A stretch of 40,648 nt of DNA. Source: Pyrinomonadaceae bacterium. GTDB taxonomy: Bacteria > Acidobacteriota > Blastocatellia > Pyrinomonadales > Pyrinomonadaceae. The notes beneath the pieces are model-generated. The model was not told the DNA's origin. It worked only from the letters and a program-made list of their open reading frames with translations, and searched no databases. Both the position numbers and the translations under genes were made by a program. Within the stretch, counting starts at the first letter, position 1. Each line of letters starts with the position of its first letter. Below, piece after piece: positions 10,947 through 28,382 of the stretch. Location of the stretch: contig JBKKAS010000027.1 of NCBI GenBank assembly GCA_046714595.1, forward strand, positions 1 to 40,648, read 5' to 3'.

Positions 10947-10962
10947 TGGCACGGCAAATGCT
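10947..10962 (+). promoter_or_regulatory. Candidate sigma54 (-24/-12) promoter for the zinc-ribbon membrane protein gene
   Basis: 'TGGCACGgcaaATGCT' against the consensus TGGCACG-N4-TTGCW. The GG and GC dinucleotides are correctly spaced, with one mismatch (A for T at the first T of TTGC). It lies 42 nt upstream of the ATG at 11004, with an AGGAGG Shine-Dalgarno at 10987-10992. Confidence 0.45.
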
Positions 10963-13370: not shown

Positions 13371-13623
13371 GATGTCTGCGCGCAGGAGTCACAACCCGGG
13401 GCAGTATTTTTTCTTCGAGGGTGGACATTATTTATGTGCGGAAAAGCTGTCGACCAGAGGTCGTAGGAGTCGTGTGCAACAAGCTTTCGCGGCGGTAACA
13501 CGTTTTCGGCCTGGATAACACACCGTAAACGCAGCCGCGGTTTTAACGGAGTAGACGTGTGAAATAACCCGTATTAAGGTTCGGATGTTTTCATTAAACT
13601 TAGCAGGAGGCGTCGGATCTTCA

Positions 13624-13639
13624 TGTGACGGCTGTCACA
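13624..13639. promoter_or_regulatory. Perfect CRP-type palindrome TGTGA-N6-TCACA upstream of the plus-strand cytochrome operon
   Basis: 'TGTGAcggctgTCACA', centred at 13631.5 and ending 61 nt before the ATG at 13700. The hexamer 'TATCAT' at 13661-13666 is placed as a -10 box for a class-II (-41.5) arrangement. Confidence 0.6.
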
Positions 13640-13699
13640 CTCCATCGCCGGATACTGGAATATCATTAAGTAATAAACTGGAAAAGGCCTCACACGTCA

Positions 13700-14866
13700 A
13701 TGCTAAAACGCTCGGCCACCACGAACATGATGGTCCGGGCATCGGTCGTAGCTCTTTTCTCCTTTCTTGCGACGATATTTCTTTTTTATTCCGATGATCT
13801 GGTAGTCAGCGTTTTGTCTCAAGCTCGTGCCCGGCGCGCGCCAAAATACTCGGAATTTCCGCACGACTCGAAGGCTCATCAGCTAGCTTGCTCTTCCTGT
13901 CACAATTTCCCGTCAGCCAACTGGAATACGGTTCGGGCTGCGCCGGCAGCGATTCCCGACATCACCGATTACCCGAAACACGAGTCTTGCTTGAACTGTC
14001 ATCGGCAGCAGTTCTTCCGCGGGGCCAGGCCGGCGATCTGCTCGATCTGCCACACGAATCCGAGTCCACGCGACAGCGCGCGCCACCCTTTTCCAAATCC
14101 GAGAGAGATCTTTGACGCATCGCCGAAGGGCAAGCAGGCAGTTTCGGATTTTGAAATTAGCTTTCCGCATGCCAAGCACATCGACATCGTAACGGCGGCA
14201 GGTGCTACGCGTTCGACATTTCGAAACGCTTCTTTTTCTACGGGACGTATGGCTGAGGAGAGCTGCTCGGTTTGTCACACGACAGTCCATCCGCAGGGGT
14301 CCTCGACCGAAGAGTATGTGACCAACCCGCCGGCGACACTTGGCGATGGCTTCTGGCTCAAGAAAGGCACGTTCAAATCGGTGCCCCTCGGCCACACCGC
14401 ATGTTTCACCTGTCATTCACAGGATTCGGGTATCGCCCCGCCGCCGTCCGACTGCGCGACGTGTCACAAGATCAAACAAGCGGCACCCGCCGCCGACTTC
14501 GATGCGAAACTTGCCGCCCGGATCGGCGTGATGGACCGCATCACCCTGGATGCCTGGCGGAAACGGGATTCCTCCGGGACCTTTCGACATGAATTTCCTA
14601 GCCACACCGAGCTAAGCTGCGACACCTGTCACAACGTTCAGACGATGAACACCCTTGACGCGAAGACGAAGCGCGTCGGCGTCGCGTCGTGCAGCATGTG
14701 CCACGTTACGGCGACCGTAGACGATGGAGGTGCGATGAATTTCGAAGTTCAGTCGCGCAAAGCCAACGCAGCTTTCCAGTGCACTAAATGCCATGTGGTT
14801 TTCGGCTCGAATCCGATACCTCCGTCGCATATTCAAGCGATTATTGAGAGCGGTGGTAAACCGTAA
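13700..14866 (+). CDS. Nonahaem c-type cytochrome, three c7/c3-type trihaem modules, N-terminal signal/anchor
   Basis: Nine CXXCH motifs: CSSCH, CLNCH, CSICH, CSVCH, CFTCH, CATCH, CDTCH, CSMCH, CTKCH. 'F.H..H....C..CH' signatures recur ('FPHDSKAHQLACSSCH', 'FRHEFPSHTELSCDTCH'), as in Geobacter PpcA-type c7. Hydrophobic N-terminus 'VVALFSFLATIFLF'. An alternative start at 13727 is possible. Confidence 0.9.
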   Translation: MLKRSATTNMMVRASVVALFSFLATIFLFYSDDLVVSVLSQARARRAPKYSEFPHDSKAHQLACSSCHNFPSANWNTVRAAPAAIPDITDYPKHESCLNCHRQQFFRGARPAICSICHTNPSPRDSARHPFPNPREIFDASPKGKQAVSDFEISFPHAKHIDIVTAAGATRSTFRNASFSTGRMAEESCSVCHTTVHPQGSSTEEYVTNPPATLGDGFWLKKGTFKSVPLGHTACFTCHSQDSGIAPPPSDCATCHKIKQAAPAADFDAKLAARIGVMDRITLDAWRKRDSSGTFRHEFPSHTELSCDTCHNVQTMNTLDAKTKRVGVASCSMCHVTATVDDGGAMNFEVQSRKANAAFQCTKCHVVFGSNPIPPSHIQAIIESGGKP

Positions 14867-14867
14867 A

Positions 14868-15731
14868 ATGATAACCGGTGCCAAAAACAATCCTGATTCG
14901 GATCTGCGTCCTCGACGGGATACCGGGGTTGTTGCGCTCGGTGCCCTGTTTCTCGTGTTCTGCCTGATCGTCCTGGCTTATGCCGCTGAACCCCCGGAGA
15001 TAACGGGCCACGAGCTGCCGCCGCCGAACGAAATGCCGACTCAGGATTTTTCGCGATTCCGCCATGACACGGCGCAACATAACAGAATGCCGTGCCTCGT
15101 TTGCCATGTCAGAAGCGACAAGAGCACGTCGCCGAAAATGCCCGGGCACATTCCATGTTCGTCATGTCACGCGCAAGAGTTCGCGGCGGGTAATCAACAT
15201 CCCATCTGCTCCATCTGTCATACTGCGACCGATGTAAAGAAATTTCCGCCGCTCCGGAGTTTCAATGCCGTCTTCGACCACGGACGGCACCTGCGGCAAA
15301 CGAACTGCGCGACATGTCATAAGCCGACGAGGCGTGGTGTAGCGCTGTCGATACCATCGCGGGTGAATGCTCACACGACGTGTTTTCAGTGTCATGGTCC
15401 GCAAACTATGGTGGGCGGCAAGAATATAGGGTCGTGCTCGACGTGTCACCAGCCCGGGCGACTTGTGCGAACCGCGGAATCTGCACGCGCGTTCGCGGTC
15501 AACTTCAGCCATACGGAACATTCGCGAAAAGGGCTAAGGTGCTCGGAATGTCACACAGTTCGCTCGGGAATGCGGCGCGGGGCGCAGGTCACGTCGCCGT
15601 TAGCATCGATGCACTTTGCTCGCGCCGGTACCACCAGTTGCGCGGCGTGTCATAACAATCGACGCGCATTTGGCGGAAACGATTTTTCGGATTGTAGAAA
15701 ATGTCACGAGGGAAGAACGTTCAAGTTTTGA
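14868..15731 (+). CDS. Nonahaem c-type cytochrome, three c7/c3-type trihaem modules (paralogue of the upstream gene)
   Basis: Nine CXXCH motifs: CLVCH, CSSCH, CSICH, CATCH, CFQCH, CSTCH, CSECH, CAACH, CRKCH. Signatures 'FRHDTAQHNRMPCLVCH', 'FDHGRHLRQTNCATCH' and 'FSHTEHSRKGLRCSECH'. TM/signal segment 'VVALGALFLVFCLIVLAYA'. I place the start at ATG 14868, 1 nt after the upstream stop; the track's 14793 start overlaps the previous gene. Confidence 0.9.
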   Translation: MITGAKNNPDSDLRPRRDTGVVALGALFLVFCLIVLAYAAEPPEITGHELPPPNEMPTQDFSRFRHDTAQHNRMPCLVCHVRSDKSTSPKMPGHIPCSSCHAQEFAAGNQHPICSICHTATDVKKFPPLRSFNAVFDHGRHLRQTNCATCHKPTRRGVALSIPSRVNAHTTCFQCHGPQTMVGGKNIGSCSTCHQPGRLVRTAESARAFAVNFSHTEHSRKGLRCSECHTVRSGMRRGAQVTSPLASMHFARAGTTSCAACHNNRRAFGGNDFSDCRKCHEGRTFKF

Positions 15732-15910
15732 GGCTATGATCGCGAATAAGTTCACGACCATGTTGTATTTTCTCGCACCCGTCGCACCGGGAGTAGAGGC
15801 GGGTTCGGTGGTTTCGCGGGTAAATAAGCGGTTTTGCCAACTCGAACGAGTGGGCATGATGGTTGCACAAGCAACAGTGACAGATCATCACGGGTCAGAC
15901 GCCCGCTGTC

Positions 15911-16255
15911 ATGCTTATGACTATCAATCGTATAAAACTACTCGCGACTATCGCCTTCGTGCTGCCGATGGCAGCATTTTCTGTTTTTCGAACAACACCG
16001 GCCGCTGCGATCACGTTGGCATTGGACGATCCTGCAGCCGCATACAAAACAAAATGCGCAATGTGCCACAGTCCGAAAGCAGAAAAGTTTTATGATCCTG
16101 CCATGTCGCAGGACCAGCAGATAGAGGCCGTCCTGAAGGGCAAGAAAGGTGAGAAACCCCCTCACATGCCCGCGTTCGAGCCGAAAGGTATGACGGCAGA
16201 AGAGGCGAAGGCGCTGGTTGAGTATATGCAAGGATTGAGAAAGCCGGCGCCGTGA
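15911..16255 (+). CDS. Monohaem class-I cytochrome c (small periplasmic carrier; same position in the parts list as MtoD)
   Basis: 114 aa with a signal peptide ('LLATIAFVLPMAAFSVF..AAA'), a single 'CAMCH', and a downstream 'PPHMPAF' that offers a candidate Met sixth ligand. Confidence 0.85.
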   Translation: MLMTINRIKLLATIAFVLPMAAFSVFRTTPAAAITLALDDPAAAYKTKCAMCHSPKAEKFYDPAMSQDQQIEAVLKGKKGEKPPHMPAFEPKGMTAEEAKALVEYMQGLRKPAP

Positions 16256-16419
16256 TGATCTGACAACTCTGCAGCAGGCAGTGAGGTCAGCATCGCCTTT
16301 GGGCAGCTTCGCGCAACGACCGATCGGTCTTGCAAAAAGCTAACCATTGGCGGTGCTGAACCGCATTCTAAAAACGCGGTCAGTGTCGGATCGGGACTCT
16401 CATCGGCTTGGAGACAATT

Positions 16420-18042
16420 ATGAGCGAAGAAACCGGGAAGACCGCGGACGATCGATCCAGCGAAACAGTTTTGCAGACGCACGGCTTGCTGCGCAATTAC
16501 GTAAGCTTTCTCGGCATCGCGCTCGCTGCGGCGAGCCTGACGAGTATTGCGCTTCTGGTTTTGATCGAGCTATCCTCGGGCGACGACAATCCGTATACAG
16601 TCCTTGTCACATACATTCTTCTGCCGGCGGTGCTCGCGTTCGGCTTATTTCTTGTCTTCGCCGGTATGCTGCTGGAAAGGCGGCGCCGACGTAAGGATCC
16701 CGATGGGCACATCACACCGTATCCGATACTGGATCTGAATGATCCGTCACGCCGCCGGACGGTCATCGTCTTTCTTTGCCTCTCGTTTGTATTTCTTTTT
16801 CTCAGCGCTTTTGGCAGCTACCGGGCATACGAATATACCGAGTCGGTCGCCTTCTGCGGAACGCAGTGTCACGCTGTGATGAAGCCTGAGTTCGTCGCGT
16901 ACAATGCATCGCCACACGCCCGCGTGAGCTGCGTCGAATGCCACGTCGGTCACGGACCGGAATGGTACGTCCGCTCGAAGCTCAACGGGATGCACCAACT
17001 GTACGCCGTGACATTCAACACATACGATCGCCCGATCAAGACGCCGCTGCACAATATGCGTCCGGCGGATCAGACCTGTGCGAAATGTCATTGGCCGGAA
17101 AAATTTCACGGCGACCAGCTCAAGGTTTTCAATCATTTCGGATTTGACGAAGTAAGCTCGCTTAATCAAACCCGAATGCTGATCAAGGTCGGCGGCGGCA
17201 GCCCGGATTCGGGTGAGGTCGGCGGTGTCCACTGGCACATGAATGTCGCCAATGAGATCACGTACATCGCGACGGACGAGAAAAGACAGGATATTCCGTG
17301 GGTAAGGTTGAAGGATCGTGACGGCAGGATCACAGAGTACGTTTCCAAGGGCGCGTCGCTGACGAAGCAGCAGATCGAACAATCCCCTCAGCGAAAGATG
17401 GATTGCATCGACTGTCACAACCGCCCGGCGCATATTTATCTTTCGCCAAATGAAGCGGTAGACCGCTCGCTGACGGCCGGTAAGCTTGATGTGTCACTTC
17501 CCTACATAAAGGCCCGTGCGGTCGATGTCCTGTCCGCGCCGTACACAACAACTGAAGAGGCTCTCGCGGCGATCGAGAAAGGGTTGACGGACTTTTATCG
17601 AACGACGTACCCCGAGATTTTCACCACTAAGACGGGATCGATAACGGGTGCCGTCGCTGAAGTAAAACAGATCTATCAGACCAACTTCTTCCCGGAAATG
17701 AAGACCGACTGGCGGGCCCACATCAACAACATCGGCCACTACAACGCCCAGGGATGCTTCCGATGCCACGACGGCCAGCATGTCAGTCCCGAGGGCAAGA
17801 TGATCCGCAATGACTGTAGCATCTGCCATACGACGATCGACCAGACATTCGGCGGCAAGACGTTCCAGGCCGCGAGCCGGACGTTCCAGCATCCTGTAAA
17901 TCTTGGCGACAAAAATACCTGGCAGTGCGCCGCCTGCCATAAAGGTGACCGGCCGTTCAAACATCCGTTGAATCTCGGCAACATCTCGCAGTTTCAATGT
18001 AGCGAATGCCATACGGGTGGCTTTGAGAAGGTGAAGTTTTGA
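16420..18042 (+). CDS. Membrane-anchored multihaem cytochrome with NapC/NirT-like N-terminal module (putative quinol dehydrogenase), 7 CXXCH + 1 CX3CH
   Basis: Three predicted TM helices come first. Then 'FCGTQCHAVMKPEFVAYNASPHARVSCVECHVGHG....DQTCAKCH', which follows the NapC/NirT layout. Further motifs: CIDCH, CFRCH, CSICH, CAACH, CSECH. I prefer ATG 16420 (GGAG 7 nt upstream) over the TTG at 16408. Confidence 0.85.
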   Translation: MSEETGKTADDRSSETVLQTHGLLRNYVSFLGIALAAASLTSIALLVLIELSSGDDNPYTVLVTYILLPAVLAFGLFLVFAGMLLERRRRRKDPDGHITPYPILDLNDPSRRRTVIVFLCLSFVFLFLSAFGSYRAYEYTESVAFCGTQCHAVMKPEFVAYNASPHARVSCVECHVGHGPEWYVRSKLNGMHQLYAVTFNTYDRPIKTPLHNMRPADQTCAKCHWPEKFHGDQLKVFNHFGFDEVSSLNQTRMLIKVGGGSPDSGEVGGVHWHMNVANEITYIATDEKRQDIPWVRLKDRDGRITEYVSKGASLTKQQIEQSPQRKMDCIDCHNRPAHIYLSPNEAVDRSLTAGKLDVSLPYIKARAVDVLSAPYTTTEEALAAIEKGLTDFYRTTYPEIFTTKTGSITGAVAEVKQIYQTNFFPEMKTDWRAHINNIGHYNAQGCFRCHDGQHVSPEGKMIRNDCSICHTTIDQTFGGKTFQAASRTFQHPVNLGDKNTWQCAACHKGDRPFKHPLNLGNISQFQCSECHTGGFEKVKF

Positions 18043-18119: not shown

Positions 18120-20180
18120 CTAACGATCAACCGCGGCCTTGCCGAAATAGATTCGCAGCGAAGTATATGGTAGGTGGGCGTTGTAATTCTGTGGATTACC
18201 TAAGCGTTCCTTGTAATCGTAGTACTGGTATCCGAGATTCCAGTCGATATTACTCGTTAGTTTTATAGCGAGCCTAACCTCGGGCGATTGAAAGCGCATC
18301 GGGTACGAAGTGATTATGTCTTGCGCCCGCGTTGACACACGGCCACCCTGGCCGCGGTCGTCGTTTATCCGGTAACTCGCGAAAACCGAAACCCGTTTGA
18401 CCGGTCTGGCGTGGATATCGAAGAAGAAACTGCTGTCACGCACAAAGTACTGGCTGATCCCGGCAAGCCGGGCACCTGCGACGGGGACGATGATGTCCGT
18501 TACCGCGTTGAGGTGCTGGAAGGTATAGCCACCGCTGAGAGTGATCTCGGGTGCGGGTGTCCAGTCGACGCTGGCTGCAAAAGTTCGGCTGCGTGTTTCG
18601 GAGGTGAAGTTGACGGCTGGCATCTCGACCGAGCGCGACGGATTATCGTTACTGCGGCTTATGAACGACGCATTGATCGAAAACGTCTTTATATTCGCTC
18701 GCGTACGAAACCGGAAATTAGTGAAATCGTAATTCGCGAGCCGGGTGAAAACGTTATCCGCCTTTCCGTGTTCGGCATCGAAGAAGATCACCCAATTATT
18801 TACCGGCTTTGCCTTGAAGCCGGCGATAAGCCCGTGGGTTTGGTTGGCGAACTCTTCCGAGATGATGGTCGTGATCGGGGTCGGACTTACATTCCTGTTC
18901 GAACCCTCGATCTGCACTTTCCTATCGGTGAATCTGTAGCCGATGTTGAACCCGAACCGGTTGTTGACCTGGTAGTCCGCCTCGATCAAGTTCGTCGCTC
19001 TGCGATACGCCGTGACGCGGTGAGCGAGCGTGCTGGTCAACACAGTCGGCAGGCCAGTACCTGCAGCATTCCTTCGTCTTAGCTCTTCATAAAAAGCATT
19101 TCCGCCGCTGATATTGAACTGGTCGAACGTAAACGTGTTCGAGATCCTAAACTTCTCCGTCACCCGGAACGTCATGCCGAGATCGCCGCGCGTTTGCGGA
19201 CGTTTCGCCTGACCCGAGATCGCAAACAAGTCGAGGTCTACCTGGTTATTTGAATTATCCCGGCCCGTGATCCGTTCGCTGAGGTTAAATTCGGTCGACG
19301 TCTGCGAATGGATCAAACGTGCGGTGAAGTCCAGTTTGCTTGCGAATGTTCGCTGCGCGTGAAACTGCACAAAATTCGTTGTGCCCTCGATTGGATTTCG
19401 CCGCTCGAAAGTAAACAGCCTCGGATTGTTCGTCGGATTGTTTCCGAGATTAATGCCGTCGATGAAATAGCTCGTTCGCTCATTGAATTTACGAAAGCCG
19501 TAATTCAAACCCAAATTGAAGCCGTACGCTTTGCCCTCGACACCCGCGCGGAAATCGTCTGACCTGGAATCGACATTCGACAAGATGCCGAACTCGTCGC
19601 CGTATGCGCGCGTCGTAAAACCGCCGTCGCCGCCGGTTCGGTTGAAGGAGTAACCCAAGCGAAATCTCAACGATTCGCGTTCGGGGAAGATACTAAGATC
19701 AAAATCGCCAAAGCCGTGATCGGTATTGGCATTATGCTGATTCAGCGCGTGATTGGTGAGATTGTTGAAATACTTCACGCGACGGATATTCGAATCGAAC
19801 CGATAGAACCCTCTGCGCTCGAGATTGAATCGAAACATGCCGCTCGGGTCACCGCCCCAGCCGCTTGTTGTCACCAGGGCGGAATCAAAAAAGTTTCCAT
19901 GCCCTTCTTTGTTCTCGATCAGGAAGCTTGAATCGAACACGCGAAAGCCGGGCCGGTAGTTCAAATCGCTGCGGTACTTGTTGTCGCTGCCATTTACGTG
20001 CACGCCGCGCAAGCCGAGCTCGATCGTGGATGTGATCTCGGCTCCGCTTGATGACGTGCTGGTGCTAGATGGCGTCGGGGATGGAGTTGGTGATTGCGCC
20101 GACGACGTTTGCGGCAGCATCGTACAGATTACGAAGATCAAAGCCGTAAACAGAATGTATCTATCGCGAGCGCAATTCAT
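18120..20180 (-). CDS. Outer-membrane beta-barrel protein, MtrB/PioB-family-like (porin partner of the decahaem cytochrome)
   Basis: Start chosen at ATG 20180 ('MNCARDRYILFTALIFVICTMLPQTSSAQS', signal peptide). It is preceded by GGAG and lies 16 nt after the stop of the upstream decahaem gene; the track's 20231 start overlaps that gene. A PT/S-rich linker is followed by about 620 aa rich in Y/F/N/G/R/D with an alternating pattern. The N-terminal 'IELGLRGVHVNGSDNKYRSDLNYRPGF' resembles the start of the MtrB/PioB family. At 686 aa it is close in size to MtrB (about 700 aa). Confidence 0.65.
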   Translation of the reverse strand: MNCARDRYILFTALIFVICTMLPQTSSAQSPTPSPTPSSTSTSSSGAEITSTIELGLRGVHVNGSDNKYRSDLNYRPGFRVFDSSFLIENKEGHGNFFDSALVTTSGWGGDPSGMFRFNLERRGFYRFDSNIRRVKYFNNLTNHALNQHNANTDHGFGDFDLSIFPERESLRFRLGYSFNRTGGDGGFTTRAYGDEFGILSNVDSRSDDFRAGVEGKAYGFNLGLNYGFRKFNERTSYFIDGINLGNNPTNNPRLFTFERRNPIEGTTNFVQFHAQRTFASKLDFTARLIHSQTSTEFNLSERITGRDNSNNQVDLDLFAISGQAKRPQTRGDLGMTFRVTEKFRISNTFTFDQFNISGGNAFYEELRRRNAAGTGLPTVLTSTLAHRVTAYRRATNLIEADYQVNNRFGFNIGYRFTDRKVQIEGSNRNVSPTPITTIISEEFANQTHGLIAGFKAKPVNNWVIFFDAEHGKADNVFTRLANYDFTNFRFRTRANIKTFSINASFISRSNDNPSRSVEMPAVNFTSETRSRTFAASVDWTPAPEITLSGGYTFQHLNAVTDIIVPVAGARLAGISQYFVRDSSFFFDIHARPVKRVSVFASYRINDDRGQGGRVSTRAQDIITSYPMRFQSPEVRLAIKLTSNIDWNLGYQYYDYKERLGNPQNYNAHLPYTSLRIYFGKAAVDR

Positions 20181-20196
20181 TTCTTCTCCGTTCACA

Positions 20197-21216
20197 CTAT
20201 CTGAAAAATACCGGGCTAGAGTTCGACCCATGGATCGCGGAATGGCATATCGTGCAATTTTGATATCTCAGCACGGCTTGGTTGTGGAACGACGGCGTGT
20301 CGGGGGCAAACTGATCGGTAATGCTGCTGTGACACTCCAGGCATAGCTGTCGTACCGAGCTTCGCTTCAACATTTTCGGATTAGCGGAGCCATGCGGCGT
20401 GTGACAGGCAGAACATCCCTCGACCTTCAACGGGGCGTGTTCAAAAACGAATGGGCCCTGTTTGTTGCTGTGACATTTCACGCAGGATGCGTCGGCGCCG
20501 ACAGCGAGCTTGACCTGTTTCTGTTCGAAACCGCCATGCGGGTTATGGCAATCGCTGCAGTTCATCGCGCCTTCAAGGACTTTATGGTGAAACGGTTTGG
20601 TGAATTGGGCTTTCGTTTCCGTGTGACACGACATGCAGAGCTGGGGCTCGTTCGAACGGAGCATCGCGCGGGTCGCCTGGCCCGGCTTCTGCGCCGCAAC
20701 ATCACCGACAAACGTGATCGAACCCGCTTTCAACGTGCCGTGATCCGGCCCGTGCGCGGTATGGCACTCGGTACAGCCGACGTTGTTACGCCAATGCTCG
20801 CCGCGTCGAAAATTGTTGTGATTCTCTTTACCTGCGTGACATGCCAAACACGTCTCGGCCGCTGCCTTTGAATCGAGGCGTTTGAATGAAATTATTTTAG
20901 TCTTATCGCCGGCCGACTCGACGTGCGCTTTGCCGGGTCCGTGACACGATTCGCATCCGACGACCTTTCCTTTCCACGACGCGACCGTGTGCAGCTTGCC
21001 GTGTTTTGTTCCTTCAAAGCTTTTGAACTGGGGTTCGTGGCAGGCGGCGCAGGTCTCAGTGCCAACGTAGTTGTCGTCTAACGTTCCGGATGTTAGGGCG
21101 ATTTGGCCGGCGCTGTTTGCGCGTTCGGACACGGTGCCAAGGGCCAGCCATACCGCTAACGAAAGTGAAATGATCGAGAGCAAACCGAGCTTGATATGTT
21201 TGTTGGAAAACGGCAT
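20197..21216 (-). CDS. Periplasmic decahaem c-type cytochrome, MtrA/DmsE/PioA/MtoA family
   Basis: 339 aa with a signal peptide and exactly ten CXXCH: CAACH, CESCH, CLACH, CTECH, CMSCH, CSDCH, CVKCH, CSACH, CLECH, CTICH. The blocks 'CSDCHNPHGG', 'FEHAPLKVEGCSACHTPHGS', 'QLCLECHS' and the C-terminal 'CHSAIHGSN' match my recollection of Shewanella MtrA (333 aa). Confidence 0.88.
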   Translation of the reverse strand: MPFSNKHIKLGLLSIISLSLAVWLALGTVSERANSAGQIALTSGTLDDNYVGTETCAACHEPQFKSFEGTKHGKLHTVASWKGKVVGCESCHGPGKAHVESAGDKTKIISFKRLDSKAAAETCLACHAGKENHNNFRRGEHWRNNVGCTECHTAHGPDHGTLKAGSITFVGDVAAQKPGQATRAMLRSNEPQLCMSCHTETKAQFTKPFHHKVLEGAMNCSDCHNPHGGFEQKQVKLAVGADASCVKCHSNKQGPFVFEHAPLKVEGCSACHTPHGSANPKMLKRSSVRQLCLECHSSITDQFAPDTPSFHNQAVLRYQNCTICHSAIHGSNSSPVFFR

Positions 21217-21308
21217 GGTTCCCTTCGTTCTGGCGGAATCTCACCGGTAAGCCGAAGGCTTCGGGTGACTCAGGTAACAATATCTTACGCCCGTCGAGCA
21301 GGCTCGTA

Positions 21309-21324
21309 TGTGTTATACGTCACA
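21309..21324. promoter_or_regulatory. CRP-type box TGTGT-N6-TCACA upstream of the mtrA-like/mtrB-like operon
   Basis: 'TGTGTtatacgTCACA', one mismatch from TGTGA-N6-TCACA. It lies 93-108 nt upstream of the ATG at 21216 (minus strand), between the regulator gene and the decahaem gene. Confidence 0.5.
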
Positions 21325-21371
21325 TATAGAAAATAGAGCATTGCTCGAAGACGCAGAGAGGCGGATTGACA

Positions 21372-22106
21372 TCATCCGTGTCCATTTCCGTGCTTTGCTC
21401 CGATCGCCGCCTTTAGTCGGGCTCGATCAGGAATGCATAGCTCGGTTTTTGAAAATGTTATCAGTTGACGATCCTTGAAGTCCTTAAAAAGGCGGGTCAC
21501 GGTCTCACGGCTGGAACCGATCATTTCCCCGATCTCGCCGTGTGTATGCGTCGGCGAAATTCTAACCAAGTCCCCGTTCGGCGAACGCTCACACCACTGG
21601 AGAAGTAGCCGGGCGAGCTTATCACCTGCCGACGCGGAAAGCCCCAGTGAGCAGATCTGCAGATGCGCTTTATGATAGTTACTGCTCAGCTGTTTCAAGG
21701 CGTTTAGTGCCGCTTCGTGATGTGTTCTGACAAAATCAAGGAAGCTGCTTTTGTTGATGAAGCTAACGCGGCAAGAGTCCGACGCCTGCGCCGTTTTTTC
21801 ATGCGGCACATCCGAGATAACGGCACTCAGCCCGAGGACCTCGCCTGGTTCGGCGATACGAAGAATGATCGTTTTACCTTCTTCCGAATAGGTGGATAAT
21901 TTGACGCGACCGTCGCACAGCAAGTACACGCCGTGTGGTGGTTGGCCTTCCATAAAAATGGTCGAGCCACGAGGAAACACGTGCGATACCTTCAGCGATT
22001 GTAGTTCCGCAAAGGCAGGCTCTGGCAGGTTGCAAAAAAACGTTTCGCGACGTATTTTGCAGTCCGCGCATGTTCCCGGAATTCTAAGGGGTTCCGAGAT
22101 CTTCAT
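21372..22106 (-). CDS. Crp/Fnr-family transcriptional regulator with FNR-like Cys set and CRP-like recognition helix
   Basis: 244 aa. The N-terminal 'C13ADC16KIRRETFFC25' plus 'ASDSC112RVSF' parallels E. coli FNR Cys20/23/29/122. A cNMP-binding-like beta-roll is present ('FMEGQPPHGVYLLCDGRVKL'). The HTH 'IGEMIGSSRETVTRLFKDF' parallels CRP 'IGQIVGCSRETVGRILKML'. Confidence 0.85.
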   Translation of the reverse strand: MKISEPLRIPGTCADCKIRRETFFCNLPEPAFAELQSLKVSHVFPRGSTIFMEGQPPHGVYLLCDGRVKLSTYSEEGKTIILRIAEPGEVLGLSAVISDVPHEKTAQASDSCRVSFINKSSFLDFVRTHHEAALNALKQLSSNYHKAHLQICSLGLSASAGDKLARLLLQWCERSPNGDLVRISPTHTHGEIGEMIGSSRETVTRLFKDFKDRQLITFSKTELCIPDRARLKAAIGAKHGNGHG

Positions 22107-22475
22107 TTAAACTCACTCTTTAAACTCACTTTTCAGAAACGCCAAGCTAACCAAATCGCCTTTACACTTAGCGCTGGATAGATGGATGAGGTGATCGGCG
22201 TTCACCGTAGGGCCCGCCAACCTACAGAGATGGGCTTTTATGGCTGTAGGAACTATTGTCACGGTCCCAGCACTGGAACGGCGAAGTGTAGTTGTAACGC
22301 GGCATGGTGCGATCGAAATCTAATTACGAAAAAAGTTGGGGCGCGTCGCTTACTCCATTTCCTTAAGAATACCGTTCCGCATGCGAGGCCGTCAGTGCGC
22401 TTTCGCACAGAACGACTTAGTGAATTCTTTCAAATTCTTCTGACGAAGACTCCTTGCTCTTCAGTTTGAACGCGC

Positions 22476-23966
22476 GTGACGACCAATTCATTGCGCGGTG
22501 GTATCGAATCGGATATATTCATGAGCAATACCCGTCGTCCCCGCTCGCCGGAGAAGTTCAAGCTAATGAAAAGCTCGACCTCGAAGATCCTTATAGTCGA
22601 TGATGAATCCGGCGTCCGGTTTGTGCTGAGCGAAGCCCTGCGCTCGTGGGGCTACGAATCGATCCAGGCGGGCAGCGTTGCTGAGGCGGTGACCTTGTTC
22701 GGGGAAGAACGTCCCACGGTGGCACTTCTCGACATCGATCTTCCTGACGGTTCAGGCCTGGACATTCTGAACAAGATCAAAGAACTGCAGCCGGCAACAG
22801 TCGTCATAATGATAACGGGAAATGTAAATGTTCCGAATCTTATGACCGCACTCAAAGGGGGAGCTCACGATTTCATTGGCAAGCCAATCCATCTGGAGGA
22901 GCTTCGCATAACATTGCGGAACGCGCTCGAGACCCGCGAGTTACGTCGTGAAGTGCGACATCTAAGAGACGAACGGGCACATCAATTCAGTCTTGAACAG
23001 ATACTCGGTGAATCTGCACCGATGAAAAAAGCGGTCGAGCTCACGCGGCGCGTCGCCCGCTCTGATGTCACGGCGATCCTGCTTCAGGGAGAAACGGGAA
23101 CGGGCAAGGATTTGTTTGCCCGGGCCATTCACCAGGCTTCCGACCGGGCTAATGCGCCGTATCTGGCGATCAACTGTGCCGCACTGCCGGCAACACTTAT
23201 CGAATCGGAATTGTTCGGTTACGAAAAAGGCGCGTTCACCGATGCGAAGCAAAAGAAAGAAGGATTGTTCGAGCAAGCACAGGGGGGAACGATCTTCCTG
23301 GACGAGATCGGAGAGATGGAACTTAGCCTTCAGGCGAAGCTTCTTCGCGTTTTGGAAGAAGGTGTGTTTCGCCGAGTCGGAGGTTTAAAAGATCTGCCGC
23401 TCGATGTGCGTATCGTTGCGGCATCGAACCAGAATTTGAAAAAGGCGAGCGAGAACGGAACCTTCAGGCTCGACTTGTTCTTCCGCCTGTCGGTAATCCA
23501 GATCGACATTCCGCCCCTTCGCGAGCGCGGTAACGACATCCTGATCCTTGCGCAGCACTACATCGACAAAGTAAATCTGAAACGCGGCGTCCGACAGTTA
23601 AAAGGACTTGGTCCAGACGTCGCTTCGATCTTTAAAGGTTATAGATGGACCGGAAACGTACGCGAGCTGAGGAACGTGATCGAGCGCGCCTCGATACTCG
23701 AGGACGGTGAGTTCGTCACTGCAGCTCATTTACCCGCCGATATGATCGGAGCTACCACCGGCGGACCGAACGGCCGGTCAGGGGTCGTACTTCCCCCGGA
23801 GGGCATTCCGCTCGAGACGGTTGAGGTCGACCTCGCGCGACAAGCGTTAGCCAGAACGGGAGGCAATCTGACGCGAGCTGCAAAGCTCCTTGATATCTCG
23901 CGCGATCAACTCCGGTACAAGCTCAAGAAAGCCGGAGACCTGGGTGCCGATCCCGAGATAGTGTGA
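22476..23966 (+). CDS. Sigma54-dependent response regulator (NtrC family: REC-AAA+-Fis HTH)
   Basis: REC domain ('[23 protein letters not shown]'). AAA+ domain with Walker A 'GETGTGKD', 'GAFTDA' in place of GAFTGA, and Walker B '[11 protein letters not shown]'. C-terminal HTH '[23 protein letters not shown]'. The track start is a GTG; ATG 22521 or ATG 22566 ('[13 protein letters not shown]') are plausible alternative starts. Confidence 0.9.
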
Positions 23967-23977
23967 TCTAACTGAAT

Positions 23978-25918
23978 ATGCTGCCCGCACGCCAGAGTAA
24001 TACCGAAGCATCCACGGATCAGCCCCGCGGACAAACTTTAAAAGAACTATCCGACATTAAGTTCGCGCTCGACGAGGCGGCAATAGTCGCTCGGACAGAC
24101 GAGCGCGGGATAATAACTTACGTTAACGACAAGTTCTGCGATATATCCAAGTACAGTCGCGAAGAGCTTGTCGGACAAGACCACCGCATCATCAATTCCG
24201 GCTATCATTCCGAAGACTTCATCCGGGACATCTGGACGACCATAGCCAGCGGCAAAACGTGGCATGGCGAACTTCGTAACCGGGCAAAAGACGATTCGAT
24301 TTACTGGGTATACACGACGATCGTTCCATTCCTGGACGAACGCGGCAAGCCGTTCCAATACATTGCCATTCGCTTTGACATCACCGAGCGTAAACTCGCC
24401 GAAGAGCGCATCCGACAGCAGGCATCGCTTCTCGACAACGCGCAGGACGCGATCCTCGTCTGCGACCCAAATTACCAGATCCTGTATTGGAACAAGGGCG
24501 CCGAGCGCATCTATGGCTGGCAGCTGGACGAGGTATTAGGCAGGAACATTTGCGATGTTTTGTTTGGGGGTGACAGACGCCCGATCGAAGAGGCGCACAG
24601 TGCCTTACAAGACGCCGGCGAACTAAAGTCGGAGGCTCGACATAGGACGAAAAGCGGAAGAAAACTGATCGTGGAAAGTCGTTGGACACTCGGGGCCAAC
24701 GGGCAGGAAAAGCCTGATCATGTTCTCATGATCAACACCGATGTAACCGAACAGAAACGAGCCGAGGAGCACCTGCTTCGGGCACAGCGGATGGAATCAA
24801 TTGGCACACTTGCCGGAGGCATTGCACACGATCTGAACAATATTCTCTCGCCCATTGTGATGTCGGTCGAAATGCTTCGGTTAAAGTACGGCGACGCAGA
24901 GACACAAAGATGGCTTTCGCTGATCGGCGAAAACGCCGAACGAGGCGCGGACCTGATAAAGCAGGTGCTGACATTTGCCCGCGGCCTCGAGGGTGAACGC
25001 ATACCTGTTCAGGTAAAGCATATCGTCAAGGATCTGGTCAGCGTCCTCCAGGAAACGCTGCCGAAATCGATCACACTAAAGTACGATGTCGGCACGCCGT
25101 GGCTTATCCCGGCCGATCCGTCTCAGATCCATCAGGTTCTGATGAATGCATGCCTGAATGCTCGTGACGCCATGCCGAACGGCGGCTCGCTGCGGATCGG
25201 GGTAGAAAATGTGCGCGTCGACGAGAGCTATGTTCGCATGAATCCCGAAGCGAATTTGGGCGGTTATGTTCAGCTCATCATTGAAGACACGGGTACAGGA
25301 ATGTCGCAGGAAACGGTCAAGCGAATTTTCGATCCGTTCTTTACTTCAAAGGCCCTCGGACACGGAACAGGACTCGGTCTTTCGACGGCCCTGACCATAG
25401 TGAAAAGTCATAGCGGATTCATAAGCGTCTATAGCGAGCCGGGTCGCGGAACTCGGTTTTCGATCAATCTTCCGGCGATGGAGGATCAGGTCGAGCCACC
25501 GGCGGTGGAAGCGGTTTCCCAATATCCGAGAGGACACGGCGAATTGATCCTCTTAGTCGATGACGAAATAAACATCATTCAGATCACGACCGCTACGCTG
25601 GAACTTTTTGGCTATCGAACGGTTTCGGCCGCTGATGGTACGAAAGGCCTGGCCGCTTACGCCCGGCAGCAGGACGAGATAGATCTCGTCATAACCGACA
25701 TGTCGATGCCGGACATGGACGGTCCGTCAATGATAAAAGAGCTCCGGAGGATCGACCCCGGAATCAACATTATCGGCATGAGCGGCCTTATGAATACCGA
25801 GCAAGCGGCGGAACTCGAACGCTTTGGCGTCAGCGCGTTTCTTACGAAGCCCTTCACTGCGGAAAAGCTCCTGACCGCCATCTCCAATGCCTTGGCGACT
25901 GATACCGCCGCACTTTAA
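23978..25918 (+). CDS. PAS/PAC-PAS hybrid sensor histidine kinase with C-terminal receiver
   Basis: Two PAS-like regions ('IITYVNDKFCDISKYSREELVGQDHRIINS', 'ILYWNKGAERIYGWQLDEVLGRN'). H-box 'GGIAHDLNNILSPI'; ATPase boxes 'IEDTGTGM' and 'GTGLGLS'. Receiver 'ILLVDDE..VITDMSMPDMDG..TKP'. It starts 11 nt after the response regulator gene. Confidence 0.9.
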   Translation: MLPARQSNTEASTDQPRGQTLKELSDIKFALDEAAIVARTDERGIITYVNDKFCDISKYSREELVGQDHRIINSGYHSEDFIRDIWTTIASGKTWHGELRNRAKDDSIYWVYTTIVPFLDERGKPFQYIAIRFDITERKLAEERIRQQASLLDNAQDAILVCDPNYQILYWNKGAERIYGWQLDEVLGRNICDVLFGGDRRPIEEAHSALQDAGELKSEARHRTKSGRKLIVESRWTLGANGQEKPDHVLMINTDVTEQKRAEEHLLRAQRMESIGTLAGGIAHDLNNILSPIVMSVEMLRLKYGDAETQRWLSLIGENAERGADLIKQVLTFARGLEGERIPVQVKHIVKDLVSVLQETLPKSITLKYDVGTPWLIPADPSQIHQVLMNACLNARDAMPNGGSLRIGVENVRVDESYVRMNPEANLGGYVQLIIEDTGTGMSQETVKRIFDPFFTSKALGHGTGLGLSTALTIVKSHSGFISVYSEPGRGTRFSINLPAMEDQVEPPAVEAVSQYPRGHGELILLVDDEINIIQITTATLELFGYRTVSAADGTKGLAAYARQQDEIDLVITDMSMPDMDGPSMIKELRRIDPGINIIGMSGLMNTEQAAELERFGVSAFLTKPFTAEKLLTAISNALATDTAAL

Positions 25919-26869: not shown

Positions 26870-27251
26870 TTTCTTGCACTCCTGTCTTATTCTTATTCCC
26901 GTGTTCGAAGTTTGAGCGGAGTCGTGAAATGCCTCATGCCGCTCCTTCTCTTTTTTGGCATTTCACACTAGACCAGTCTCAACTTTGGTTCCACGATCGA
27001 TTCTTCGTGAGACATAGGTAGTTGTTCAAGAATGTTCGGCTCCGTAGTTTGCACGCGTGAGGATTGCGTGGCTTTTTTCGCGATTCGTGGATTTCCTCGC
27101 AGCGCATAGTGAAGTGCTGAGAGTGGGATTTGGATCGATTTTCCGGCGATCGCTCATCTTGGGACACCGCAAACCCCGGGGCACAACTGTTGCCGAACAG
27201 AATGGTAGATCCACGCGCATATTTTGAGCGCCGGATGAATTCTACGGAGGC

Positions 27252-28382
27252 TTGATGTCAAAAATACTCATTTTAGGTGGCGGATTCGGTGGCTTGGTAA
27301 CGGCGGAACGGCTCGCAGCGATGCTTGATGGCTCTCACCAGATCACCCTGGTTGCGCCGAATCAGAATTTTACTTTTTATCCGGCGCTGGTCCAGCTGGC
27401 TTTGGGCGAGTGTCAGCCGGCAGACGTTACGTTCGGACTTCGGGAGAAACTCAGGGACCTCGGCGTACGATTTGTTGAGGGCGAGCTGATAAGGATCGAC
27501 GCCGCACGACAGACGGCCGAGATCGCGGGCGACGATTTCAATGGCGACATTACATATGACTATGTAGTGCTCGCCCCGGGGCGTCGACTTGCTACCGAGA
27601 AGATCCCCGGTTTCTTTGAGCACGCCTCTCACTTACTCGGAATCAGTGCGGCAACCCGATTTGGCGAAAAGGTACGCGCCTTTCGCAAGGGAACAATTGT
27701 CGTCGGCAGCTGTCCCGATGCTCGCCTTCCAGTCCCGGTTTGCGAGACTGCGTTTGCGCTGGCAAGGTGGTTCAAGACAGAGGTTGACGACGGCAGTGTC
27801 CGCATTAAGGTGGTCTTTCCTGAGTCGCTCGAGTCGGCGTTCGGCGGGGCGCTGCTGCACAAGGAGCTGGAATCCGCGTTTGACCGCCACCACATTACGG
27901 TCCATTACGACATACCGATCACGGAGGTCGAGCCGAATGCGGTCATCTCATCGAAAGGCCACAAGATAATTTACGATCTGCTAATGCTGGTTCCGCCCTT
28001 TCGCGGACAAGCGATACTTAGCGATCTCGGGATCACAGATGAATCGGACTACATCAAGGTCGATGGGCAGATGCGCGTCCGCGGTCTCGCAAACGCGTAC
28101 GCCGTCGGTGACGCGGTAGCTTTTTCCGGGCCGAAGTTCGCGCACATGGCCGTCCGCCAAGCCGAGGTCGCGGCAAAAAATATCGCGGCTGCACTTAAAG
28201 GCACCGAGCCCGACACCGAGTATTATCACGAGATCGCCGCTATCATCGACGCCGGCGGCTCAGACTCGATCTTTCTGCATTACGGTATCTGGGACGATGT
28301 CACATACCATCTACATCAAGGTCGTCTTTGGAGTTGGGCAAAAGGCGTTCACGATAAAGTGTGGCAGGCGAGACATGCCTAA
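27252..28382 (+). CDS. FAD-dependent pyridine nucleotide-disulfide oxidoreductase, sulfide:quinone oxidoreductase/NDH-2-like
   Basis: The N-terminal Rossmann motif 'KILILGGGFGGL', 'YDYVVLAPG', the 'C..ARLPVPVCETAF' region and the C-terminal 'AVGDAV' FAD motif fit the layout of the SQR/NDH-2 family. GGAGG lies upstream. Confidence 0.7.
   Translation: MMSKILILGGGFGGLVTAERLAAMLDGSHQITLVAPNQNFTFYPALVQLALGECQPADVTFGLREKLRDLGVRFVEGELIRIDAARQTAEIAGDDFNGDITYDYVVLAPGRRLATEKIPGFFEHASHLLGISAATRFGEKVRAFRKGTIVVGSCPDARLPVPVCETAFALARWFKTEVDDGSVRIKVVFPESLESAFGGALLHKELESAFDRHHITVHYDIPITEVEPNAVISSKGHKIIYDLLMLVPPFRGQAILSDLGITDESDYIKVDGQMRVRGLANAYAVGDAVAFSGPKFAHMAVRQAEVAAKNIAAALKGTEPDTEYYHEIAAIIDAGGSDSIFLHYGIWDDVTYHLHQGRLWSWAKGVHDKVWQARHA

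Follow-up and report, generated by a model that had tools for sequence, protein, structure and literature searches.

A CRP/FNR-superfamily regulator with a candidate four-cysteine sensor site and CRP-type boxes upstream of multihaem cytochrome operons in Acidobacteriota

The window analysed here, a whole stretch of 40,648 nucleotides from a Pyrinomonadaceae bacterium, encodes a regulator of the CRP/FNR superfamily that probably represents a new subfamily with a candidate Cys4 sensor of the Fe-S type. We regard as reasonably probable, taken as a whole, a mechanism in which a Cys4 sensor is combined with CRP-type class II activation of the two cytochrome operons of the window. A dimer of the regulator would bind TGTGA(C)-N4-(G)TCACA boxes through R200, E201, and R205. 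These boxes would be centred at -41.5 in promoters with a -10 element but lacking a -35 element, i.e., in the class II arrangement, and from there the regulator would turn on the adjacent decahaem-porin operon and the multihaem operon at 13700. Its activity would be set not by cAMP but by a four-cysteine metal site made of a loop with C13, C16, and C25 and of C64 in a hairpin. This site would most likely be an O2- or redox-labile Fe-S cluster, and the cytochrome operons would therefore be expressed when oxygen is scarce. Activation, the presence of an Fe-S cluster on the cysteines, and O2 as the signal are what we infer from the sequence comparisons presented below.

The regulator and its place in the superfamily

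The regulator gene (positions 21372–22106, minus strand) codes for 244 residues, arranged as an N-terminal cysteine loop, a beta-roll, a dimerisation helix, and a CRP-type HTH. The protein belongs to the CRP/FNR superfamily both by its Pfam domains, all of which pass their cut-offs (cNMP_binding PF00027, 1.1e-19; HTH_Crp_2 PF13545, 2.2e-16; PF00325, 8e-9), and by the CRP fold of its AF2 model, which has a mean pLDDT of 82.5 and low confidence in the first 20 residues (pLDDT 42–56). None of the NCBIfam equivalogs reaches its cut-off with this protein. The Fnr model NF008365 gives 48.2 bits for a cut-off of 228, and the CRP model NF008732 gives 61.6 bits for a cut-off of 266. The best matches among NCBIfam models and PDB sequences are CRPs, and the FNR of A. 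fischeri appears in the PDB search (E = 5e-10) after some 34 sequences of CRP, NtcA, and DNR. The AF2 model matches CRP, GlxR, Clr, and NtcA in Foldseek at E ~1e-17, and A. fischeri FNR is not in the top 50. The regulator is closer to M. tuberculosis CRP, GlxR, and NtcA than to FNR, in sequence and in fold. Several sources label its homologues 'cyclic AMP receptor protein'.

Regulators of this type are common in soil Acidobacteria. The comparative set used in this work consists of 80 acidobacterial loci encoding relatives of the regulator, for a total of 1.46 Mb. Among the remote representatives of the family, the cluster members are metagenomic proteins only. Searches of the literature on FNR, TGTGA boxes, and multihaem regulation in acidobacteria gave nothing on this family, which is also not covered by a CRP/FNR family survey or by the RedB paper.

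Cysteines of the candidate sensor site

Three N-terminal cysteines form the motif C13-x2-C16-x8-C25 (22032–22070, minus strand), which we propose as a metal- or cluster-binding loop. Their codons, at 22068–22070, 22059–22061, and 22032–22034, respectively, were verified. The proposed fourth ligand is Cys64 (21915–21917, minus strand), which lies in the β4-β5 hairpin and aligns with R72 of FNR. Each of these four cysteines is present in 75/75 genome homologues having 44–54% identity to the regulator, and the third cysteine follows the CxxC at the x8 distance in 69/76. Covariation was counted in a wider sample of 50%-clustered representatives, reaching down to 27% identity, of which 92 have the triad and 41 lack it. 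C64 closely follows the triad, as it is found in 89 of the former and in 17 of the latter (97% vs 41%; Fisher p = 1.6e-12). For its placement in space, the AR1 surface of FNR may serve as a reference.

Four invariant cysteines suit a mononuclear site equally well. An alternative that we find unlikely, but that deserves serious attention, is that the Cys4 site is something other than an O2-labile Fe-S cluster: a structural or regulatory Zn(Cys)4 site or a rubredoxin-like Fe(Cys)4 site, a switch based on thiol-disulfide chemistry (oxidation of the CprK, FLP, or FixK2 type), or a centre that senses NO. With DNA binding and targets unchanged, the regulator would in that case respond to redox state, to the availability of metals, or to nitrosative stress instead of O2. 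Disulfides could arise at two lineage-variable positions of the dimerisation helix, C152 (24/75) and the column of FNR R140 (Cys in 49/75). Elsewhere in the superfamily, outside FNR, NO or redox is sensed by haem, Fe-S, or thiol chemistry (PMC5701242, PMC12937710), and the main target of the regulator is an iron-related electron conduit. Against this alternative, the CxxC of the regulator aligns with the cluster-binding CxxC of FNR. The genes linked to boxes in relatives point in the same direction. Besides the cytochrome operons, they code for PFOR (pyruvate:ferredoxin oxidoreductase), a radical-SAM/SPASM enzyme, Usp proteins, and a small cytochrome c, of which PFOR, radical-SAM, and Usp are classical anaerobic or hypoxic functions; the predicted targets fit an anaerobic or hypoxic regulon. 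Among the box-linked downstream genes of the 80 loci, which fall into 42 clusters (only the largest named by Pfam), there was no hcp or NO-detoxification gene, and no hcp was found among the scanned ORFs of the window.

A different alternative retains the cluster but changes its ligands. The regulator would be a true FNR-type [4Fe-4S] sensor using C13, C16, C25, and C112, O2 would destroy the cluster and monomerise the protein in the manner of E. coli FNR, and only its recognition helix would have been exchanged for one of the CRP type. The original prediction had drawn the parallel between these four cysteines and those of FNR, and all four are where it placed them, with verified codons (21771–21773, minus strand, for Cys112); C64 and C152 went unmentioned. 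C13 and C16 do align with C20 and C23 of FNR, and the column of FNR C29 is occupied by T, H, or R in the regulator family. C112 is found in 110/120 of the closest homologues and is paired with FNR C122 in one MAFFT run, and a one-residue deletion at CRP E72 is common to FNR and the regulator. However, the equivalence of C112 and FNR C122 does not hold. In the iterative alignment C112 pairs with Cys93 of CRP, which is not a ligand, and FNR C122 pairs with S115, a position with Asn in 71/75 homologues. Moreover, C112 is conserved in only 61/75 genome homologues, being replaced in 14/75, and shows no covariation with the triad (50/92 with it, 23/41 without it; 54% vs 56%, p = 1.0). It is probably not a ligand, and the resulting ligand hypothesis is specific: C13, C16, C25, and C64, not C112.

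The dimer switch of FNR also seems to be missing. In FNR the metastable dimer depends on a D130-R140 salt bridge and on D154 at the coiled-coil interface, and O2 no longer causes monomerisation of a D154A variant (PMC4672761). By alignment, these residues correspond to L123, A133, and A147 of the regulator, so that the position of D154 is occupied by precisely the residue of the FNR variant, and one should not presume that O2 monomerises the regulator as it does FNR. The whole family follows this trend, as the three columns have L in 67/75, C or A in 70/75, and A in 73/75 homologues, respectively. With, in addition, an Fnr model score far below its cut-off and FNR structures ranking below CRP, GlxR, and NtcA, we consider the FNR-type sensor improbable and retain the Cys4 site that includes C64.

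Recognition helix, boxes, and target operons

The recognition helix S199-R200-E201-T-V-T-R205 (21492–21512, minus strand; codons verified) has the R-E-x3-R pattern of CRP and not the pattern of FNR, in agreement with the original prediction. R200, E201, and R205 align with R180, E181, and R185 of CRP and are present in 75/75 genome homologues and in at least 119/120 of the closest homologues. FNR has V at the R200 column, and the E209-x2-S212-R213 helix pattern of FNR is absent from the regulator. The role of R180, E181, and R185 in DNA specificity is an established rule (PMC1274295). The regulator therefore has the residues expected for the DNA-binding mode of CRP, and its predicted link to the box comes from comparative genomics.

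Two boxes are found in the window. Box 1, TGTGTTATACGTCACA, is located at 21309–21324 (minus strand, where it reads TGTGACGTATAACACA) and departs from TGTGA-N6-TCACA by one mismatch, which falls in the core (ACACA instead of TCACA). Its PWM score of 13.7 bits is also attained in ~2/20 shuffles. Box 2, TGTGACGGCTGTCACA, at 13624–13639 on the plus strand, is a perfect palindrome scoring 19.0 bits. That the best palindromes of the locus are these two, of the TGTGA and not of the TTGAT type, had been predicted, and both were found as described; there is no TTGAT-N4-ATCAA in the window, even with one mismatch. The two boxes are the only TGTG-N8-CACA matches in its 40.6 kb (expectation 0.39, with two or more in 6/100 shuffles); judged from the window alone, they are only weakly above chance. 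They become convincing because they are intergenic, because they are conserved in orthologous promoters, and because the motif is enriched in the entire family.

Both boxes precede cytochrome genes. Downstream of box 1 is a gene for a DmsE/MtrA-family decahaem c-type cytochrome of 339 aa (20197–21216, minus strand; TIGR03508 and Pfam). The presence of this decahaem gene had been anticipated correctly, as one counts 10 CxxCH motifs in the protein, which scores 238 bits with NCBIfam TIGR03508 (DmsE-family decahaem), above the curated cut-off of 192. The succession of regulator, box, and decahaem gene is found in 34 loci. The next gene (18120–20231, minus strand) overlaps the end of the decahaem gene and codes for a 703-aa protein that is presumably the outer-membrane porin partner, although it is MtrB-like by position only. 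This protein has no Pfam domain and a weak match to the GSU2204 family (25.8 bits), and its gene is kept downstream of the decahaem gene in relatives. Box 2 lies upstream of a multihaem c-type cytochrome operon (13700–18042, plus strand), identified by Pfam, NCBIfam, and CxxCH counts. Its multihaem genes, all on the plus strand, are at 13700–14866 (9 CxxCH), at 14793–15731 (9 CxxCH), and at 16408–18042 (7 CxxCH, with a NapC/NrfH-like N-terminus).

When 1024 palindromes are compared in the 80 loci, TGTGA-N6-TCACA comes first, with 89 copies against a mean of 2.1, and the next unrelated palindrome has 23 copies. The FNR-type TTGAT-N4-ATCAA occurs only twice in the same 1.46 Mb. Among the perfect boxes, 65/89 are within ~2.5 kb of the regulator gene. 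Boxes are found between genes much more frequently than expected by chance, also at a distance from the regulator: of those more than 3 kb away from it, 15/24 are intergenic, where intergenic regions make up ~10% of the sequence (p = 8e-10). These distributions support a tight association between the regulator family and TGTGA-N6-TCACA boxes, and we infer that the boxes are read by the regulator itself and not by another CRP-like factor.

The geometry of the promoters is also conserved. In each case a -10-like hexamer begins 29.5 bp away from the box centre, TAAGAT for box 1 (21282–21287, minus strand; predicted TSS ~21275) and TATCAT for box 2 (13661–13666, plus strand; predicted TSS ~13673). 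Both boxes are thus centred 41.5 bp upstream of the predicted transcript starts, which is the arrangement of class II CRP/FNR-dependent promoters. Across the boxes of the family, TAnnnT peaks at this same distance of +29.5 (26/173, corrected p ~2.5e-21). Among orthologous decahaem promoters, those of three loci (L083, L084, and L087) have perfect boxes at the position of box 1, TAAGAT and its spacing are invariant in four promoters, and footprint alignments show conservation of the box, TAAGAT, and the RBS only. Similarly, a perfect box precedes the orthologous multihaem cytochrome in six further loci, and the gap of 21 nt between box 2 and its hexamer is kept in 6/7 orthologous promoters. A consensus scan of the two intergenic regions gave no complete -35/-10 sigma-70 promoter, and no relevant intrinsic terminators were found around the regulator gene. 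A box placed over the -35 region could in principle repress instead of activating.

Of the redox switch first proposed for both operons, FNR-like in sensing and CRP-like in DNA specificity, the boxes and the helix have stood up, and the C112 ligand has not.

Control of the cytochrome operons by a neighbouring sigma-54 activator was also considered and was rejected, as neither promoter region has a -24/-12 element. Candidate elements occur only at 10947 and 27179, and matches to the pattern are no more frequent than expected (26 found vs 34 expected). Upstream of the regulator gene of the window (22107–22475) there is no autoregulatory box of at least 9 bits; in two other loci (L084 and L085) the regulator is preceded by a box with one mismatch.

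The codons of CxxCH motifs can mimic the box (TGT-GNN-NNN-TGT-CAC-A), as they do at 14618 within a cytochrome gene and at 7047 in L084. Box 2 itself can be read as C-D-x-C-H (TGT-GAC-NNN-TGT-CAC-A) within a 70-aa ORF. Given these look-alikes, the mismatch in box 1, and the 6/100 shuffles of the window with two TGTG-N8-CACA, one may ask whether the palindromes arise by chance, are by-products of CxxCH codons, or are read by some other CRP-type factor, in which case the position of the regulator would tell nothing about control. We hold this to be very improbable. Inside genes the by-product explanation is true, but it fails for the two intergenic boxes: their counterparts in orthologous promoters differ in the central bases, do not encode CxxCH, and still occupy the same place at the same distance from the -10 hexamer. 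Furthermore, the motif outranks all other palindromes in the 80 loci, clusters by the regulator gene, and has an intergenic bias, and there is no second CRP-family gene in the 40.6-kb window.

As for cAMP, the residues that contact it in CRP are lost in the regulator, where a deletion removes E72 and the positions of R82, S83, T127, and S128 hold H, E, A, and H, respectively. Across the family the same four positions have H or Y, E, A, and H, C, or Y. Sensing of cAMP by the regulator is therefore excluded. That it would be an ordinary cAMP receptor protein (a CRP orthologue), subjecting the cytochrome operons to carbon or energy control, is scarcely credible, since a helix and a box of the E. 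coli CRP type, CRPs as best NCBIfam and PDB matches, and homologues named after CRP are set against a CRP model score of less than a quarter of the cut-off, the loss of the cAMP contacts, and a conserved N-terminal cysteine loop that CRP lacks.

Relation to known systems and wider reading

The FNR proteins of E. coli and A. fischeri (PDB 5E44/8QTO) resemble the regulator in superfamily, domain order, and an N-terminal extension with a CxxC followed by a third cysteine. They share with it the E72 deletion, the lack of cAMP ligands, the class II (-41.5) placement, and an anaerobic-flavoured regulon. The differences concern both sensing and DNA reading: the third cysteine comes x5 after the CxxC in FNR and x8 in the regulator, the fourth conserved cysteine is C122 in FNR and C64 (the position of FNR R72) in the regulator, D130, R140, and D154 are present in one and absent from the other, the helix is E-x2-S-R versus R-E-x3-R, and the boxes are TTGAT-N4-ATCAA versus TGTGA-N6-TCACA. 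A longer spacing between CxxC and third cysteine than in E. coli FNR is also found in rhizobial FnrN, which retains its Fe-S site. FnrN keeps the E-x2-S-R helix, TTGAT-type boxes, and the central cysteine, and the regulator family has none of these three. FnrN has four conserved cysteines (PMC3590769).

The Fnr of Bacillus and Paenibacillus is a [4Fe-4S] O2 sensor with the motif TGTGA-N6-TCACA, and its cluster site is C-terminal, made of C227, C230, and C235 plus D141 (bioRxiv 10.1101/2020.01.03.894683). It thus provides a precedent for an Fe-S sensor with a CRP-type box. It also stays dimeric after loss of the cluster (PMC12937710), and such persistence of the dimer may apply to the regulator, because the switch residues of FNR are missing from it. 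The C-terminal cysteine cluster of the Bacillus protein has no counterpart in the regulator, whose candidate ligands lie near the N-terminus and within the beta-roll. The last 40 residues of the regulator contain a single cysteine, C224, at a position where the wider family has L, V, I, or F.

The CRP of E. coli, the CRP of M. tuberculosis (Rv3676), and the GlxR of Corynebacterium are the best matches of the regulator in sequence and fold, and they share with it the R180/E181/R185 contact triad and the type of box. The regulator differs from them in having lost the cAMP residues and gained the N-terminal cysteine loop. HcpR1 and HcpR2 of Desulfovibrio also fall outside FNR within the superfamily and belong to anaerobes. 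TGTGA-N6-TCACA is the site bound by HcpR1, and in the model proposed for HcpR2 an Fe-S protein loses activity on contact with NO (PMC5701242), the motif of the HcpR2 branch being GTAAC-N4-GTTAC (PMC1274295). HcpR1, however, is thought to use haem, and HcpRs are defined by a linkage to hcp and nitrosative stress that is unseen among the box-linked genes of the regulator.

Since Bacillus Fnr already combines an Fe-S sensor with CRP-type DNA reading, this pairing will not surprise the specialist. The value of the present case therefore lies in a new subfamily, an altered set of ligands, and an ecological target, and not in a new principle. A 2026 structural review recognises two cluster-binding architectures in the CRP/FNR family (PMC12937710), to which the Cys4 hypothesis, if true, adds a third. 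This third design may consist of an N-terminal C-x2-C-x8-C and a cysteine in the β4-β5 hairpin, without the monomer-dimer switch of FNR.

In Acidobacteriota as a whole, the family seems to govern a regulon for hypoxia or redox, with an MtrAB-like decahaem-porin electron conduit as its core target. Acidobacteriota are among the most abundant bacteria in soils, and to our knowledge almost nothing is known of their respiratory regulation. The triplet of regulator, motif, and targets ties a probable O2 or redox sensor to cytochrome operons of the extracellular-electron-transfer type, and the consensus box TGTGAC-N4-GTCACA at -41.5 can be used to predict regulons in acidobacterial genomes and MAGs. 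We propose only tentatively, as possible but short of probable, the joint reading of a third Cys4-metal sensor design, CRP-type reading of DNA, a hypoxia/redox MtrAB-like regulon, and a system of paired boxes with a truncated paralogue. The paired boxes lie exactly 22 bp apart and are found in many lineages. Many lineages also have a truncated, sensor-only paralogue of the regulator that is itself under the control of a box and could act as a heterodimerising feedback inhibitor.

The regulator and its family

The interval contains a single ORF (21372–22106, minus strand) coding for a 244-aa protein with the Pfam domains cNMP_binding, HTH_Crp_2, and Crp. It reaches no curated NCBIfam family cut-off, scoring 61.6 bits for CRP (cut-off 266), 48.2 for Fnr (cut-off 228), 56.9 for FtrB, and 56.2 for NtcA. 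In its AF2 model (mean pLDDT 82.5), confidence is good over the beta-roll, the dimer helix, and the HTH but not over residues 1–20; Foldseek ranks Mtb CRP, GlxR, Clr, and NtcA at the top, and FNR is absent from the top 50. By membership tests, the regulator is outside FNR, CRP, Bacillus Fnr, and HcpR.

A word-indexed search returned 7247 homologues at E < 1e-10, the closest 120 having 51–90% identity and the named ones among these being Acidobacteriota or Pyrinomonadaceae. In a scan with one genome per GTDB species, we found 542 relatives. The best 80 loci, used hereafter, are nearly all from Acidobacteriota, including Pyrinomonadaceae, Chloracidobacterium, Aridibacter, Terriglobales, Ca. Sulfotelmatobacter, Ca. 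Korobacteraceae, and Ca. Acidoferrales. The subfamily is phylum-wide and uncharacterised, and a literature search found no paper on it.

DNA specificity, promoters, and predicted targets

The CRP-type recognition helix of the original prediction is borne out. S-R-E-T-V-T-R occupies residues 199–205, and in alignments with E. coli FNR and CRP (from NC_000913.3) the DNA-contact residues match CRP R180, E181, and R185, which are kept in 120, 120, and 119 of the closest 120 homologues and are invariant in the genome homologues (75/75). These positions, and the correlation of residues 180/181 with the contacted bases, are established (PMC1274295).

Both predicted palindromes exist and are of TGTGA type, the window having no TTGAT-N4-ATCAA even at one mismatch. 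Box 2 (13624–13639, plus strand) is a perfect, intergenic TGTGA-N6-TCACA upstream of a three-gene multihaem c-type cytochrome cluster (13700–18042, plus strand). Box 1 (21309–21324, minus strand), also intergenic, departs by one T-to-A change (ACACA for TCACA) and lies 48 bp past the regulator stop codon. It precedes, as predicted, a gene with ten CxxCH motifs (20197–21216, minus strand) directly downstream of the regulator on the same strand; this gene passes the DmsE-family decahaem model TIGR03508 (238 bits, cut-off 192). An overlapping 703-aa ORF follows, to which Pfam and NCBIfam scans assign no family. The 40.6-kb window has exactly two TGTG-N8-CACA sites where chance predicts 0.39; 6 of 100 shuffles reach two, and about 2 of 20 match the score of box 1 on the family PWM (13.7 bits). 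Seen within the window alone, the palindromes stand out only modestly.

All 5-mer inverted repeats spaced by 6 bp were counted across the 80 loci (1.46 Mb), with no motif assumed beforehand. The top word is TGTGA-N6-TCACA with 89 copies (mean of the 1024 words 2.1, next unrelated word 23); TTGAT-N4-ATCAA has two. With a 4-bp gap, GTGAC-N4-GTCAC leads (79), hence the consensus TGTGAC-N4-GTCACA. Of the 80 loci, 63 have at least one perfect box; the regulator gene is no more than about 2.5 kb away for 65 of the 89 boxes, most of which come right after its stop codon. ORF calls were deliberately generous, counting 90% of the sequence as coding; under them, 57 of 90 perfect boxes fall in intergenic sequence, as do 15 of the 24 that are >3 kb from the regulator (p = 8e-10). 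The enrichment upstream of genes on which the original prediction had staked itself is thus found, as far as the 80-locus data reach.

Genes downstream of intergenic boxes in these loci, taken as the predicted regulon, code for DmsE/MtrA-like decahaem cytochromes (48 boxes in 34 loci), a truncated regulator paralogue (39 boxes in 30 loci), a radical-SAM/SPASM enzyme (8), pyruvate:ferredoxin oxidoreductase (4), and the 13700-type multihaem cytochrome (7 loci), and also for a DHOD-B-type Fe-S flavoprotein subunit, Usp proteins, and a small cytochrome c. The set matches typical low-oxygen physiology. The predicted DNA recognition and targets are well supported and very probably correct.

Each window promoter has a −10-like hexamer beginning exactly 29.5 bp from the centre of its box: TAAGAT (21287–21282, minus strand) for box 1 and TATCAT (13661–13666, plus strand) for box 2. 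With this spacing the boxes are centred at −41.5, where CRP and FNR sit at class II promoters. TAnnnT peaks at the same +29.5 offset in 26 of 173 non-redundant box-to-gene alignments (background 1.6 per offset, corrected p about 2.5e-21), with a second peak 22 bp beyond. When the regulator–decahaem intergenic region is aligned with those of loci L083, L084, and L087 (regulators 90, 72, and 70% identical), three elements alone are conserved: the box, an invariantly spaced TAAGAT, and the ribosome-binding site; the box is perfect in these three loci, versus one mismatch in the window. A perfect box also precedes the orthologue of the 13700 cytochrome in six other loci, and the 21-nt box–hexamer gap is kept in 6 of 7 such promoters, window included. 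A consensus scan of the coding strand of both box regions found no promoter with −35 and −10 together, nor does either region have a sigma-54 element, which fits activator-dependent promoters. The predicted mode is like that of a class II CRP/FNR activator.

Boxes are frequently paired, with 85 pairs 22 bp apart centre to centre (e.g., L009 10737/10759, L016 4312/4334, L038 11699/11721) and at most 6 at any other spacing of 11–80 bp; this pairing also accounts for the 49 TCACA-N6-TGTGA counts. In pairs, the −10 signal is 29.5 bp from the proximal box, so that the two boxes are centred at −41.5 and −63.5. The window's own boxes are unpaired. The codons TGT-GAC-NNN-TGT-CAC-A of the haem-binding motif C-D-x-C-H resemble the consensus TGTGAC-NNN-TGTCACA, hence look-alike boxes inside multihaem cytochrome coding sequences (window 14618–14633; L084 7047). 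A 70-aa ORF (13585–13797), probably spurious, runs through the perfect intergenic box 2 and translates it as C-D-G-C-H.

Cysteines and signal

The predicted cysteines C13, C16, C25, and C112 are all in the ORF, together with C64, C152, C172, and C224. C13, C16, C25, and C64 are found in every one of the 75 full-length genome homologues, compared with 61 for C112 and 24 for C152. Covariation was analysed on 50%-identity-clustered representatives of an exhaustive HMMER search, down to 27% identity. C64 occurs in 89 of 92 representatives with the C13-x2-C16-x8-C25 triad and in 17 of 41 without the full triad (Fisher test, p = 1.6e-12), C112 in 50 and 23, respectively (p = 1.0). The iterative alignment matches C112 to Cys93 of CRP, a cysteine that binds no metal, and FNR C122 to S115, where the family has Asn. 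Hence C112 is probably not the fourth ligand, and the likely metal site, as judged from sequence, is C13, C16, C25, and C64.

C64 pairs with FNR R72 on the beta4–beta5 hairpin. In FNR, the 71–75 loop forms one surface patch, AR1, with the 116–121 and 181–191 loops. The FNR cluster loop (residues 17–29) contacts the 180–190 loop (2026 structural review, PMC12937710). If both hold, C64 would lie near the place of FNR's cluster. The relay residues FNR D130, R140, and D154 are missing, corresponding to L123, A133, and A147, and D154A keeps E. coli FNR dimeric in air (PMC4672761). If a cluster exists, FNR-style monomerisation is therefore probably not the signal route. The FNR-style details of the original prediction, C112 as ligand and the implied mechanism, are probably wrong. 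Its Fe-S/O2 part is plausible and slightly favoured, the alternatives being Zn, thiol, and NO. As for cAMP, it was rejected as ligand: CRP E72 has no counterpart, a deletion shared with FNR, and H/Y stands in place of R82, E of S83, A of T127, and H/C/Y of S128.

Two Fe-S architectures are recognised in the family, N-terminal in Gram-negative FNR and C-terminal in Bacillus Fnr (PMC12937710). TGTGA-N6-TCACA is bound by Bacillus/Paenibacillus Fnr (bioRxiv 10.1101/2020.01.03.894683) and by Desulfovibrio HcpR1, HcpR2 being modelled as an Fe-S protein (PMC5701242). Given these precedents, an Fe-S sensor with a CRP-type box is not new in principle and would not surprise a CRP/FNR specialist. What is new is the subfamily, its probable ligand set, which unlike FNR's combines the N-terminal triad with a Cys of the beta-roll hairpin, its lack of the FNR dimer switch, and its conserved link to an MtrAB-like decahaem–porin operon in Acidobacteriota. 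The regulator is possibly a third cluster-binding architecture, and a clean, testable way into respiratory regulation of abundant soil bacteria.

Lineage-specific extra cysteines lie on or beside the dimerisation helix and could be disulfide or secondary redox sites. The FNR-R140 column is Cys in 49 of 75 family members (Ala, A133, in the window), and C152 (codon 21651–21653) is Cys in 118 of 120 of the window's clade and Arg in 50 of 75 of the wider family.

Gene neighbourhood

The truncated paralogue (~150–210 aa) is directly downstream of the regulator in 37 of the 80 loci (e.g., L025 10886–11395, L006 10830–11351, L009 10824–11276); the window has none. It spans regulator residues ~9–156 (Cys loop, beta-roll, dimerisation helix), without the DNA-binding domain, and TGTGA boxes precede its gene too. 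C-x2-C-x8-C and C64 are kept in Terriglobales copies and lost in Blastocatellia ones. It could be a heterodimerising feedback inhibitor.

The order HK, sigma-54 RR, (Usp), regulator, decahaem, porin-like gene is kept in the closest relatives, where one or two universal-stress-protein genes separate the sigma-54 regulator from the CRP-family gene (L083 6551–8502, L084 4278–5183, L087 8064–9988); in L084 and L085, a one-mismatch box lies between Usp gene and regulator. The window has solely a 369-bp gap there (22107–22475) and no palindromic box upstream of the regulator. A direct repeat, TTTAAACTCACT, occurs twice at 22107–22135, abutting the start codon; the minus strand reads AGTGAGTTTAAA twice, then ATG.

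Sigma-54-like −24/−12 elements, a pattern not enriched overall in the window, precede a zinc-ribbon protein gene (11004–11849; TGGCACGGCAAATGC, 10947–10961, plus strand) and a pyridine-nucleotide-disulfide oxidoreductase gene (27252–28382; GGGCACAACTGTTGC, 27179–27193, plus strand), possible targets of the conserved sigma-54 activator/PAS kinase pair (22476–25918). Signalling genes are packed densely around the window cytochrome genes: a 1684-aa hybrid histidine kinase (eight HAMP, one GAF, and three receiver domains) is adjoined by a second GAF hybrid kinase (hybrid-kinase genes at 4887–9941 and 2581–4860, both minus strand) and a HAMP-only protein (9963–10778).
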